Source of the DNA: Escherichia coli 042
GTDB taxonomy: Bacteria; Pseudomonadota; Gammaproteobacteria; Enterobacterales; Enterobacteriaceae
Reading direction: 5' to 3' (one strand)
Assembly (NCBI RefSeq): GCF_000027125.1
Contig: NC_017626.1
DNA: 64,000 bases
Below, in pieces: positions 56,193 through 59,525 of the stretch. The position numbers and the translations under genes are program-made. Each line of letters opens with the position of its first letter. The stretch's first letter is position 1. A model generated the notes under the pieces. The model was not told the DNA's origin and made no database searches. It worked only from the letters and a program-made list of their open reading frames with translations.

Positions 56193-57122
56193 ATGTCCAA
56201 AAAGATTGCCGTGATTGGCGAATGCATGATTGAGCTTTCCGAGAAAGGCGCGGACGTTAAGCGCGGTTTCGGCGGCGATACCCTGAACACCTCCGTCTAT
56301 ATCGCCCGTCAGGTCGATCCTGCGGCATTAACCGTTCATTACGTAACGGCGCTGGGAACGGACAGTTTTAGCCAGCAAATGCTGGACGCCTGGCACGGCG
56401 AGAACGTTGATACTTCCCTGACCCAACGGATGGAAAACCGTCTTCCGGGCCTTTACTACATTGAAACCGACAGCACCGGCGAACGTACGTTCTACTACTG
56501 GCGTAACGAAGCCGCCGCCAAATTCTGGCTGGAGAGCGAGCAGTCTGCGGCGATTTGCGAAGAGCTGGCGAATTTCGATTATCTCTACCTGAGCGGGATT
56601 AGCCTGGCGATCTTAAGCCCGACCAGCCGCGAGAAACTGCTTTCTTTGTTGCGCGAATGCCGCGCCAACGGCGGAAAAGTAATTTTCGACAATAACTATC
56701 GTCCGCGCCTGTGGGCCAGCAAAGAAGAGACACAGCAGGTGTACCAGCAAATGCTGGAATGCACGGATATCGCCTTCCTGACGCTGGACGACGAAGACGC
56801 GCTATGGGGTCAACAGCCGGTGGAAGACGTCATTGCGCGCACCCATAACGCGGGCGTGAAAGAAGTGGTGGTGAAACGCGGGGCGGATTCTTGCCTGGTG
56901 TCCATTGCTGGCGAAGGGTTAGTGGATGTTCCGGCGGTGAAACTGCCGAAAGAAAAAGTGATCGATACCACCGCAGCTGGCGACTCTTTCAGTGCCGGTT
57001 ATCTGGCGGTACGTTTGACGGGCGGCAGTGCGGAAAACGCGGCGAAACGCGGGCACCTGACCGCAAGTACCGTTATTCAGTATCGCGGCGCGATTATCCC
57101 GCGTGAGGCAATGCCGGAATAA
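56193..57122 (+). CDS. kdgK: 2-dehydro-3-deoxygluconokinase (PfkB family)
   Basis: MSKKIAVIGECMIELSEKGADVKRGFGGDTLNTSVY..., 309 aa from the ATG at 56193, with the DTTAAGDSF motif. The track ORF is over-extended into pdeH. Confidence 0.95.
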   Translation: MSKKIAVIGECMIELSEKGADVKRGFGGDTLNTSVYIARQVDPAALTVHYVTALGTDSFSQQMLDAWHGENVDTSLTQRMENRLPGLYYIETDSTGERTFYYWRNEAAAKFWLESEQSAAICEELANFDYLYLSGISLAILSPTSREKLLSLLRECRANGGKVIFDNNYRPRLWASKEETQQVYQQMLECTDIAFLTLDDEDALWGQQPVEDVIARTHNAGVKEVVVKRGADSCLVSIAGEGLVDVPAVKLPKEKVIDTTAAGDSFSAGYLAVRLTGGSAENAAKRGHLTASTVIQYRGAIIPREAMPE

Positions 57123-57678
57123 TGGTTTTTGACGGAGAACGGGTAGATATTCGTTCTCCGTTAATCGCCTTGCAGGGGTGAACCGAACTATGCTGATAAT
57201 TTGAAGTAAACTGCTGACGCATATCATTCAAACTACGCGTAAATTTAAGCGGGTTCTCACCTTTAATTTCGACCGTGACGAAGACATTCCCATTGTTGTT
57301 AAAGAAGCCAAAATAATAGTCATGTTGATGACGACGATTGGTTTTAAATTGACGAAATGATAAATAGCAGCGGTTATCGTAGGTAATTAAAAAATCATTT
57401 TCTCCGTATTCGTTTATCATCTTATTTTTCAGGCTACCATCGAAGAGCACTGCATACTTATCTTTGTCAGCAAATAATTCGGCATCAGTTTCTCGGTTGA
57501 TCGTGTTGACGCTGATACCGAATTCTATTTTTACCTTGTCTTTATCGATATTATTTCTTGTGCTGACATACATATTATTGGCATCCCAGAGTAAGAGAAA
57601 GTTTTTGTTGCAGGAATAAAGACCTGTTAAGCAAAGAATGACTGTTAGCAAGAATAGTATGCGTTTTTTGTTACGCAT
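57094..57678 (-). CDS. island ORF E: secreted or lipoprotein-like protein of unknown function, with a 3' end running into core DNA
   Basis: 194 aa with signal peptide MRNKKRILFLLTVILCLTGLYSC and SD AGGAG 5 nt before the ATG. The last ~24 codons lie outside the repeat-bounded insert and overlap the kdgK 3' end by 29 nt. Confidence 0.6.
   Translation of the reverse strand: MRNKKRILFLLTVILCLTGLYSCNKNFLLLWDANNMYVSTRNNIDKDKVKIEFGISVNTINRETDAELFADKDKYAVLFDGSLKNKMINEYGENDFLITYDNRCYLSFRQFKTNRRHQHDYYFGFFNNNGNVFVTVEIKGENPLKFTRSLNDMRQQFTSNYQHSSVHPCKAINGERISTRSPSKTIIPALPHAG
57132..57161. terminator. hairpin immediately after kdgK
   Basis: 10-bp perfect stem acggagaacg-(10 nt)-cgttctccgt. Its last 4 nt overlap the left copy of the 9-bp direct repeat. 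Confidence 0.6.
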
Positions 57679-57739
57679 TTATACTCCTGAAAATGCGTTG
57701 AGGTCGCAAATATAATTAAATAGTCTGACATAAATAAAA

Positions 57740-58060
57740 TTAATTCCCTATCAATAATACATCTGCGACTTTTCTTGGTCCTTCGTAGATCTCAAATGCC
57801 TCGTACTTAGTCATCCATTGTTCAGGGGCGGTATCGAAAAGGAACTGAACGCACCCCATTGAAACGATACGTCCATCGGTTACATTAGGTTTTTCCAATT
57901 CAAAAACAACGCTCCATGCATTATTTTGCCAGTCAGTTTTCTCCTCTGGAAACCTGGAGACGGGATAATATCTACCGATAGGAGGTGCGCTCCTTCTGCC
58001 ACCTTCATTTTCTGTAAGCCAAACAACCTTTACACGATACATATGTTTCCATTCATTCAT
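57740..58060 (-). CDS. island ORF D: stand-alone EF-Tu domain III-like beta-barrel protein
   Basis: 106 aa. H-MYRVKVVWLTENEGGRRS...GRYYP...FEIYEGPRKVADVLLIGN aligns with EF-Tu [20 protein letters not shown]...GYRP...[20 protein letters not shown]. The start lies 3 nt after the ORF C stop. Confidence 0.7.
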   Translation of the reverse strand: MNEWKHMYRVKVVWLTENEGGRRSAPPIGRYYPVSRFPEEKTDWQNNAWSVVFELEKPNVTDGRIVSMGCVQFLFDTAPEQWMTKYEAFEIYEGPRKVADVLLIGN

Positions 58061-58063
58061 TAA

Positions 58064-58543
58064 TTAAATTAAGTGTGAATTATATAATATTGCCACCCCA
58101 TGCGATCTTTCCCATTTTAGTCCATCAACTAATAATGATAGAAAAGAATACTGGAAGCTTATATTTTTAATCACTTCTATTTTTTCATCATCTAATGACA
58201 AGATTACCCACCCCCCGTAATTTTTGCTAACCAGGTTGTTAATAAATTTAATTATAGGATTGGTTGAAATATCCTTTCCTTTATTCACAGCCATTTCCAG
58301 GTCATCGACTAAAGAACCATTGAAGTTGTAAACATGATATTCATTAAAGTCTATGTGCTCATCTAAAGGTGGGCCATAAGTAATCGGTAGATTGCATCTC
58401 TGCAAAAGATGATGATTACACCAGGCGTATACCGGAGGGTCGCGATGAAAGGTTTCCCCACCCCAGTGAACCATAACCTCTTGTAGATCTAGTTCCTCTG
58501 GAGCGAATCGTGTAGGGAGTAAAATATCCAAGTGAAAATCCAT
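58064..58543 (-). CDS. island ORF C: hypothetical protein (159 aa)
   Basis: AT-rich ORF with SD-like AGGATAGG before the ATG. It is coupled to ORF D. I recognise no motif. Confidence 0.6.
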   Translation of the reverse strand: MDFHLDILLPTRFAPEELDLQEVMVHWGGETFHRDPPVYAWCNHHLLQRCNLPITYGPPLDEHIDFNEYHVYNFNGSLVDDLEMAVNKGKDISTNPIIKFINNLVSKNYGGWVILSLDDEKIEVIKNISFQYSFLSLLVDGLKWERSHGVAILYNSHLI

Positions 58544-58642
58544 AGCCTATCCTAAATTTGGCACCCATAACATAAACTGTGTAAGAATCAACGACTGCCC
58601 CCCCAAAAATGGGAAAATTTACTTATTATGCAAAGTTACTTA

Positions 58643-58897
58643 TTAAGAAGCCCATTCCTCATTTTTTGGCAAATAGCCCTTTCGCCAACAGGTCAGAATC
58701 TTAAAACTCGCTCGCAAATAAAATTTATTAGCCGAATCGTTTTTAACCATTCTGACTAATGTCATCTCACCCGTTCTTTTATCTATCACGAACTCGCCGT
58801 AATCAGATCTACAATAGTCAGAAGATGTAGGTCCAAATTCATATTTTACTACTTTATCAGTTTCTTCAATTTTCAATATTTCTATATGATAGGCCAT
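58643..58897 (-). CDS. island ORF B: hypothetical small protein (84 aa)
   Basis: Its start overlaps the ORF A stop (TAATG). I recognise no motif. Confidence 0.6.
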   Translation of the reverse strand: MAYHIEILKIEETDKVVKYEFGPTSSDYCRSDYGEFVIDKRTGEMTLVRMVKNDSANKFYLRASFKILTCWRKGYLPKNEEWAS

Positions 58898-59322
58898 TAT
58901 TTAACACCATCTATTGCCTGGCATCGTATACAGCTAAAACCAGTAGCTAAAATCTCAACATAACTATCATAACCTGCTATAATATAATGTTTTAACTTTA
59001 ACCGTTTTTTAGGGTCATATAATCTCTCTTTTTCTTCAAGCGGTACAGAATTCATTACTTGATATATACCGGAGTCCAGATTTTCACCATCAACCTTCTT
59101 AATAACAATATTGTTATAGTTGGCTTCATGAAAATTGACGGTAGCACACTTAACTTCAGCAACTGTAGTGAAGACCAGTTCAATTTGAACATAATCTTTC
59201 TCTGTTGATATTAACTCCAGAGCATCTACTTTAATGTTGACGCCATCAGACTCTGTATATGTTAAAGATAAATAAGTTGTGGAAATCCTGAATCCAATCG
59301 ATTGTGATTTTAACACAAGCAT
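58897..59322 (-). CDS. island ORF A: hypothetical protein (141 aa)
   Basis: The ATG at 59322 lies 7 nt after GGAAGGAG. The track's GTG start at 59346 is less likely. The predicted pattern is beta-rich, and I recognise no motif. Confidence 0.6.
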   Translation of the reverse strand: MLVLKSQSIGFRISTTYLSLTYTESDGVNIKVDALELISTEKDYVQIELVFTTVAEVKCATVNFHEANYNNIVIKKVDGENLDSGIYQVMNSVPLEEKERLYDPKKRLKLKHYIIAGYDSYVEILATGFSCIRCQAIDGVK

Positions 59323-59489
59323 AAACTCACTCCTTCCAGTAGGCACAGGTATAATTTATTCAGCTAATAAATAATTAAACCCACTCTACGGTAAGTTTAT
59401 TTTAATAATGAATGGTTATCTGCGCGCTACCGCCGTGCCCGGAAAAATATCTGCGGTTATATCACGGTAACTAATTTATTACCGTTAAT

Positions 59490-59518
59490 CCCGGCAGCGC
59501 AGAAGAAACGCTGCCGGG
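59490..59518. terminator. bidirectional terminator hairpin downstream of yhjJ
   Basis: 10-bp perfect stem cccggcagcg-(9 nt)-cgctgccggg followed by ttatttatt on the + strand. It starts at the last base of the right direct-repeat copy. Confidence 0.75.
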
Positions 59519-59525
59519 TTATTTA

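Follow-up and report, generated by a model that had tools for sequence, protein, structure and literature searches.

ORF D of Escherichia coli 042, a divergent free-standing homologue of EF-Tu domain III, as a probable orphan immunity gene for a predicted ADP-ribosyltransferase-fold toxin family

Main finding

The window analysed here, a 64,000-nucleotide stretch of the Escherichia coli 042 chromosome (NC_017626.1), carries a small low-GC island between kdgK and yhjJ. One of its five short genes, open reading frame D (ORF D), encodes a protein of about 100 amino acids that resembles domain III of EF-Tu and is probably an orphan immunity protein for a polymorphic toxin with a predicted ADP-ribosyltransferase (ART) fold. 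Relatives of ORF D, referred to below as the D family, are always found directly after an ART-type toxin, and ORF D is therefore most likely a stand-alone antidote gene. The D family is a previously unnamed immunity family with an unusual and informative ancestry. Immunity proteins of interbacterial toxins are usually regarded as unrelated, fast-evolving binders, whereas this family appears to be EF-Tu-derived. It is widespread (473 immunity clusters and 184 confirmed metagenome toxin loci, on Rhs/YD and other scaffolds) and is locked to one mini-ART toxin family that has TreTu among its nearest structural relatives. Neither the toxin family nor the immunity family is covered by Pfam, NCBIfam, PADLOC or PHROGs. 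In E. coli, ORF D is a likely shield against the toxins of other enterobacterial genera, and a strain-variable one (3% of complete genomes).

Homology to EF-Tu domain III

The gene and the two blocks of it that matter most for the comparison with EF-Tu are located as follows.

57740–58060, minus strand: ORF D, 106 amino acids when read from the first ATG (58060) in the ORF list
57997–58005, minus strand: codons for Gly14-Gly15-Arg16 of ORF D (100-residue numbering), opposite Gly316-Gly317-Arg318 of EF-Tu (the 'EGGR' loop) in the hhalign register
57770–57796, minus strand: codons for F83-E-I-Y-E87-G88-P-R-K91 of ORF D, opposite F374-A-I-R-E378-G-G-R-T382 of EF-Tu in the hhalign register

The true start of ORF D is probably the second ATG (58042), where RefSeq WP_000286426.1 and all homologues begin, giving a protein of 100 amino acids. 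With 100–106 amino acids the protein has neither a GTPase domain nor domain II. ORF D yielded no Pfam match even at an E-value of 10, none in NCBIfam and no PDB sequence match, and the searches made with the island ORFs gave no usable PADLOC or PHROGs match. BLASTP of ORF D against E. coli EF-Tu (a query sequence 99% identical to the tuf loci) aligned 26 residues (EF-Tu 305–329) at an E-value of 0.073 for the single comparison. PDB sequence and profile searches with ORF D and with its family alignments stayed at chance level, the mitochondrial EF-Tu appearing in register at an E-value of 1.8.

Structure prediction gave a clearer picture. The AlphaFold2 model of ORF D, computed from a 14-sequence alignment, is mostly beta, with a predicted local distance difference test score (pLDDT) of 89.4 and a predicted template modelling score (pTM) of 0.83. 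It is a closed barrel that can be superposed on domain III of EF-Tu and EF1A, which is the fold expected of the GTP_EFTU_D3 superfamily. The best matches in a Foldseek search of the PDB with this model were nearly all EF-Tu or EF1A; after EF-Tu, the structure comparison brought up domain III of EF1A, Hbs1, eRF3, GTPBP1, CysN, eIF2-gamma and SelB. Identity between ORF D and EF-Tu is 21–24%.

Profile comparison pointed to the same domain. Aligned by hhalign, an 81-sequence profile of the D family matched an EF-Tu domain III alignment with a P-value of 0.0019 over 82 columns (D residues 1–98 against EF-Tu 303–389), and all 16 reversed or shuffled controls did worse (best P-value 0.06, at most 20 columns). 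The EF-Tu domain III alignment was small and was built with the tuf genes of eleven IMG/VR contigs (L030–L040). These tuf genes, drawn from a 'viral' collection, are 57–99% identical to E. coli EF-Tu, and the contigs probably represent host DNA at prophage borders or misclassified sequence. Single family members also reach EF-Tu. Over 95 amino acids, the member P0161 and domain III of E. coli EF-Tu are 31% identical (E-value 3e-7), and P0161 matches Pfam GTP_EFTU_D3 (PF03143) from model position 6 to 103 of 106 (E-value 2.5e-5, 25.0 bits); the gathering score of that model is 27 bits, and neither ORF D nor P0161, the best family member, attains it. Individual matches to GTP_EFTU_D3 at an E-value below 1 were obtained for 7 of the 81 D-family members, and an EF-Tu domain III hidden Markov model (HMM) recovered P0161 at an E-value of 1.3e-6 and matched dozens of members in register at two shared blocks.

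The first of these blocks is the EGGR loop, where G15 and R16 of ORF D are invariant within the close family. The second, F83–K91, is the best-conserved stretch common to ORF D and EF-Tu, and its F83, E87 and G88 are conserved in at least 90% of the 81 family members. Within this block K91 occupies the place of EF-Tu Thr382, the target site of Doc. The first-pass annotation had made something of this Thr-to-Lys difference. It is correct in the alignment, but it carries little weight because the Thr382-equivalent position varies across the D family.

Relative to EF-Tu domain III (TufA approximately 300–393; PF03143), D proteins are thus alignable from end to end in one register and have in common the EGGR and F-x-I-x-E-G-x-R-x-V blocks; they differ in being free-standing and in residing in toxin–immunity modules rather than in translation operons. 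Among the D relatives listed, none is fused to a GTPase as the C-terminal domain of a translational GTPase would be. The family also has motifs of its own that EF-Tu lacks, namely AWSV (WQNNAWSVVFEL) and FL..AP followed by a short helix (residues 72–80 of the model). Profile alignment and modelled fold together confirm ORF D as a free-standing, divergent homologue of EF-Tu domain III, and on the same grounds the D family is best read as a descendant of EF-Tu domain III or of the corresponding domain in a very closely related translational GTPase. The proposal from which this work started, that a detached EF-Tu domain III aligns end to end with ORF D inside a horizontally acquired cassette, has held up: both the profile alignment to TufA and the comparison of structure models were run and found the similarity, the computed register is the one originally proposed, and the gene lies in a low-GC island.

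Gene context and the cognate toxin

An exhaustive HMMER search with a close-family profile retrieved 473 representative clusters at E-values up to 1e-3, and most of the 150 relatives listed are about 90–135 amino acids long. Homologues in Citrobacter, Serratia marcescens and Jejubacter lie behind PAAR-Rhs genes, within arrays made up of immunity genes and orphan toxin tips, in the company of TriTu, Imm50, Barstar, SUKH and Tox-HNH genes. Short ORFs resembling the SymE toxin were seen on the opposite strand beside D homologues in such Rhs arrays, in Jejubacter (L007:4554–4736) and in Serratia (L014:6351–6467).

The Serratia locus (L014) identified the partner. Here a 765-amino-acid Rhs/YD-shell protein is followed 18 nt on by a D homologue, and the approximately 105 residues after the DPLGL core boundary of this protein recur, with 65–100% identity, directly upstream of other D homologues in Yersinia, Citrobacter, Photorhabdus and Paraburkholderia. 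In Photorhabdus (L021) the same domain terminates an Rhs ORF of at least 1322 amino acids. The domain likewise directly precedes three remote D-family members, on non-Rhs scaffolds; P0161, the member most like EF-Tu, is among the three. A metagenome scan with the toxin alignment yielded 184 confirmed loci, of which the best 80 (L046–L125) were retained. Of these, 76 extend far enough downstream of the toxin ORF, and every one of the 76 has a same-strand D-family ORF there, at a distance of −4 to +38 nt; none is unpaired. Across 10 pairs, sequence identity among the toxins tracks that among the immunity proteins (r 0.91, Mantel p 2e-4), a correlation that shared ancestry could produce as well.

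D relatives are also found away from the toxin. They occur as orphan copies in immunity arrays, as a lone copy between housekeeping genes in Proteus, and in other orphan settings with differing genes upstream. Tandem and fused forms include P0061 (a tandem duplication with a further C-terminal domain), the C-terminally extended P0141, P0056 and P0082, and two larger proteins that end in the D domain, P0137 (483 amino acids) and P0158 (261 amino acids). At the level of the family, D relatives thus display the genomic hallmarks of immunity proteins: location downstream of a toxin, orphan copies, arrays and fusions. The suggestion of an immunity role, one of several made in the first-pass annotation, is strongly supported by this gene context, since the survey of genomic neighbours brought out one conserved polymorphic-toxin C-terminal domain directly upstream in every checkable locus.

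The toxin domain itself comprises about 95–105 amino acids and always forms the C-terminal end of its ORF. It is carried by Rhs/YD scaffolds or by scaffolds with Gly/Ala-rich, membrane-like linkers (L046–L125, L014, L021, L041, L042), and its consensus reads TLYRAVS..E...(18)...EGK[FW]FAE...A..WG......LDGIGPARY. In sequence searches of Pfam and the PDB the domain matched nothing beyond the Rhs core boundary and no characterized ART. The AlphaFold2 model (pLDDT 86.7) shows the split beta-sheet of an ART fold, in which strand beta-1 bears a conserved NAD-binding residue. TreTu and Tpt1 are its nearest fold neighbours, and the top fold match is an RNA-modifying enzyme. Six residues are near-invariant among 68 distinct metagenome copies (Arg5, Glu11, Lys31, Glu35, Asp76 and Arg82), with Arg5 present in 61 of 61 and Glu11 in 61 of 62 sequences. 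The positions and spacing of Arg5 and Glu11 are those of Arg6 and Glu12 in TreTu, both of which are needed for TreTu activity (PMC9825190). Because of the modelled ART fold and the TreTu-like Arg/Glu spacing, the toxin is best described as a predicted, uncharacterized mini-ART family that is structurally nearest to TreTu and Tpt1.

TreTu is an ADP-ribosyltransferase toxin of Salmonella Rhs-main that modifies Asp21 of EF-Tu and is paired with the immunity protein TriTu (PMC9825190; PDB 7ZHL/7ZHM). The two systems have much in common: the D-associated toxin, like TreTu, is a minimal ART-fold domain of about 100 amino acids at the end of Rhs proteins, with a beta-1 Arg and a helix-1 Glu at an equal spacing; both toxin genes are immediately followed by their immunity genes; and TriTu genes share orphan arrays with D relatives. 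They are nevertheless distinct, as the D-associated toxin has no sequence-level similarity to TreTu. TriTu, reported to consist of a flat five-stranded sheet plus two helices, covers the catalytic cleft of TreTu (PMC9825190), whereas the D model is a closed barrel, and ORF D, which lacks a Pfam match, is not a member of the TriTu family (PF24689).

Orphan status in E. coli

Neither the toxin domain nor an Rhs core had a match anywhere in the window. When the toxin–immunity module of Citrobacter was divided, the toxin half was found in none of 5426 complete E. coli genomes, and the D half matched exactly the 169 genomes that carry the island. No plasmid in PLSDB encodes the toxin. ORF D is accordingly classed as an orphan immunity gene because the toxin is absent from both the window and the E. 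coli genomes. Toxin-less immunity genes in low-GC, acquired and strain-variable DNA are known from the orphan immunity genes and islands of Rhs and contact-dependent growth inhibition (CDI) arrays (e.g. PMC3150448, PMC3967940), and D relatives resemble these also in lying downstream of full-length Rhs genes. The E. coli island differs from them in that it adjoins no rhs or cdi locus and holds no remnant of an Rhs core.

Several points weigh against reading ORF D as an EF-Tu-derived immunity gene for this toxin. Taken alone, the sequence of ORF D matches neither EF-Tu nor any curated family significantly, and the link to EF-Tu consists of a structure prediction and a transitive, profile-level similarity. 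Physical binding and neutralization of the toxin by ORF D are deduced from gene order alone, because neither the toxin family nor the immunity family has been experimentally characterized in the searchable literature. The enzymatic activity and target of the toxin, and cross-protection by the E. coli allele, are likewise presumed; that allele is only 54–70% identical to toxin-adjacent alleles. No promoter was identified with confidence for the island, and no immunity function could be demonstrated for the four other island genes.

Mode of action and alternative explanations

In the mechanism that we propose, D-family proteins, which are cytoplasmic and about 100 amino acids long, would neutralize a single mini-ART toxin domain of about 100 amino acids at the C-terminal end of interbacterial polymorphic toxins of the Rhs and other types. 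In toxin producers the immunity gene comes a few bases after the toxin gene. Like other immunity proteins of ART toxins, the D protein would most likely bind the toxin 1:1 and block either the active site of the toxin or the surface by which it docks on its target. In E. coli, ORF D would serve as an acquired shield against toxin-bearing Citrobacter, Serratia, Yersinia, Photorhabdus and similar neighbours.

A more specific version of this mechanism invokes target mimicry. It supposes that the toxin recognizes EF-Tu through domain III, whether as substrate, docking site or activating partner, and that D is a high-affinity decoy descended from a duplicated tuf domain III; we regard it as a tentative proposal that is rather less probable than its negation. 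The idea is attractive because the fold of the cognate toxin is close to that of the EF-Tu-modifying TreTu, with which the toxin also has the Arg/Glu spacing in common. By structure and by sequence, the D family is specifically closest to domain III of bacterial EF-Tu, and a toxin that already binds domain III would offer the simplest route to an EF-Tu-derived immunity protein. The EGGR (316–318) and F-x-I-x-E-G (374–379) blocks include kirromycin-resistance sites and belong to a functional face of EF-Tu that would be exposed in the free domain; G316D and E378K mark such sites at the interface of EF-Tu domains I and III. A kirromycin-resistant EF-Tu with A375T has been described (PMC5485169). 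Against mimicry, the conserved Gly, Glu and Arg may be purely structural, immunity proteins arise from many unrelated folds without mimicking anything, and the top fold match of the toxin is an RNA-modifying enzyme. For TreTu, moreover, the reported docking site is helix D in the G domain and not domain III (PMC9825190).

Precedents from other toxins bear on the same question. Interbacterial toxins repeatedly use EF-Tu as a target, an activator or an entry factor, and EF-Tu is a recurrent partner of CDI toxins and type VI secretion system (T6SS) toxins; an EF-Tu-derived immunity protein is biologically plausible for this reason. EF-Tu-binding toxins include CdiA-CT of NC101 and EC869 (PMC5737660), Rhs2 of Serratia (bioRxiv 10.1101/2025.10.28.685041) and Rhs2 of Salmonella (bioRxiv 10.64898/2026.05.10.723254). 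In these systems it is EF-Tu itself that is the partner, and their immunity proteins are not reported to be EF-Tu-like. CdiA-CT of NC101 binds domain 2 of EF-Tu and not domain III (PMC5737660). The characterized T6SS ART toxins named in a 2026 paper are Tre1, TreX, Tre23, TreTu and RhsP2, to which that paper adds TreThr. The open-access literature yielded no account of an EF-Tu-like immunity protein, a prior description elsewhere being possible, and a comparative survey of polymorphic toxins from 2012 does not mention EF-Tu.

If mimicry applies, the ancestry of D predicts the target or docking site of the toxin, namely EF-Tu via domain III, and the family becomes a possible example of immunity through target mimicry. 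One can imagine an immunity family born from the toxin's own target, in which a duplicated EF-Tu domain III was captured beside a TreTu-like mini-ART that docked on domain III, and then became a tight decoy. We consider this scenario speculative and somewhat unlikely. Were it true, the ancestry of an immunity protein would disclose the target or cofactor of a toxin ahead of biochemistry, and D would be the first interbacterial-toxin immunity protein known to mimic a target domain.

The gene directly upstream of ORF D had been put forward as a possible partner.

58064–58543, minus strand: ORF C, 159 amino acids, directly upstream of ORF D

ORF C ends 1–19 nt ahead of the ORF D start on the same strand, a spacing typical of coupled pairs, and would with ORF D constitute a local toxin–immunity or toxin–antitoxin pair in which D neutralizes C. 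Several observations speak against such a pair, which we consider very improbable. ORF C does not resemble the toxin domain that precedes D relatives, has no match to a toxin family or delivery domain in Pfam, NCBIfam, PADLOC or PHROGs, and shows no feature that we could find to mark it as a toxin. It forms only four protein clusters among 5.8 billion proteins, and the single cluster whose context was examined (63% identical, on the fragmented assembly L045) comes from the same island at the same kdgK–yhjJ site. D relatives in other orphan settings have differing upstream genes. The partnership of C and D proposed at the outset is thus not borne out, as ORF C bears no relation to the conserved toxin domain and, in the single cluster whose context was examined, again lies in this island; ORF C was rejected as the toxin neutralized by ORF D.

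Domain III of EF-Tu contacts EF-Ts and the tRNA T-stem. The homology to this domain and the motifs held in common with EF-Tu could be taken to mean that ORF D acts on EF-Tu partners (EF-Ts, aminoacyl-tRNA, Doc-type kinases or the EF-Tu G domain) and thereby tunes or shields translation. We give this reading very little credence. That D proteins pair obligately with a single toxin family (76 of 76 loci) and diverge along with it indicates that their partner is the toxin; ORF D and EF-Tu are only 21–24% identical; the family-specific motifs AWSV and FL..AP are absent from EF-Tu; and the Thr382-equivalent is not conserved. The related suggestion, in which ORF D as sensor or adaptor would hijack EF-Ts, tRNA or Doc, is likewise not supported, as no pointer to such a role was found.

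That ORF D is a decaying, functionless fragment of a tuf or selB-like gene, as its coverage of only the last EF-Tu domain might suggest, is practically excluded because a recent fragment would be much more similar to EF-Tu, because the family is large (473 clusters, mostly of about 100 amino acids) with conserved motifs of its own, and because the ORF is intact and nearly identical in all 169 E. coli genomes that carry it. Degraded fragments with no conserved neighbourhood, which had been named as the outcome that would undo the original proposal, are not what the family consists of, as it has a conserved toxin partner gene.

The island at kdgK–yhjJ

The gene order in this part of the window is that of the E. 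coli chromosome (yhjE, yhjG, pdeH, kdgK, island, yhjJ, dctA, pdeK).

57116–59524, strand not applicable: low-GC island of 2409 bp, with break points at 57115/57116 and 59524/59525 by blastn against the K-12 locus (L126)
57094–57678, minus strand: ORF of 194 amino acids in the ORF list, with no significant family match
58643–59346, minus strand: two ORFs in the ORF list, of 149 amino acids (58897–59346) and 84 amino acids (58643–58897), with a 1-nt stop/start overlap

The island stands in place of the 101-bp kdgK–yhjJ intergenic region of K-12, and its GC content is 36.5%, compared with 54–56% in the flanking genes. Of 5426 complete E. coli genomes, 169 (3%) carry it, at the same site every time. 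No flanking direct repeats, integrase or tRNA were seen at the island, and scans of it for promoters, terminators and repeats gave nothing above chance. Composition and comparison with K-12 confirm the island as horizontally acquired and strain-variable, to judge by its sequence. At its left junction the last kdgK codon is changed, from ...MPA* in K-12 to ...MPE* here.

All of the island genes (ORF D and four others) are minus-strand ORFs annotated as 'hypothetical protein', and the five have no meaningful match in Pfam, NCBIfam, PADLOC or PHROGs. Apart from ORF D, they have no homologues in the loci L002–L044 (the E. coli locus, L001, being excluded). The 194-amino-acid ORF converges on kdgK, its 3' end overlapping the last 29 bases of that gene, and has a lipoprotein-like N-terminus (MRNKKRILFLLTVILCLTGLYSC); its product could conceivably be an envelope-located immunity protein. 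The overlap between the 149- and 84-amino-acid ORFs suggests translational coupling, and the two genes possibly constitute a second two-gene module within the island.

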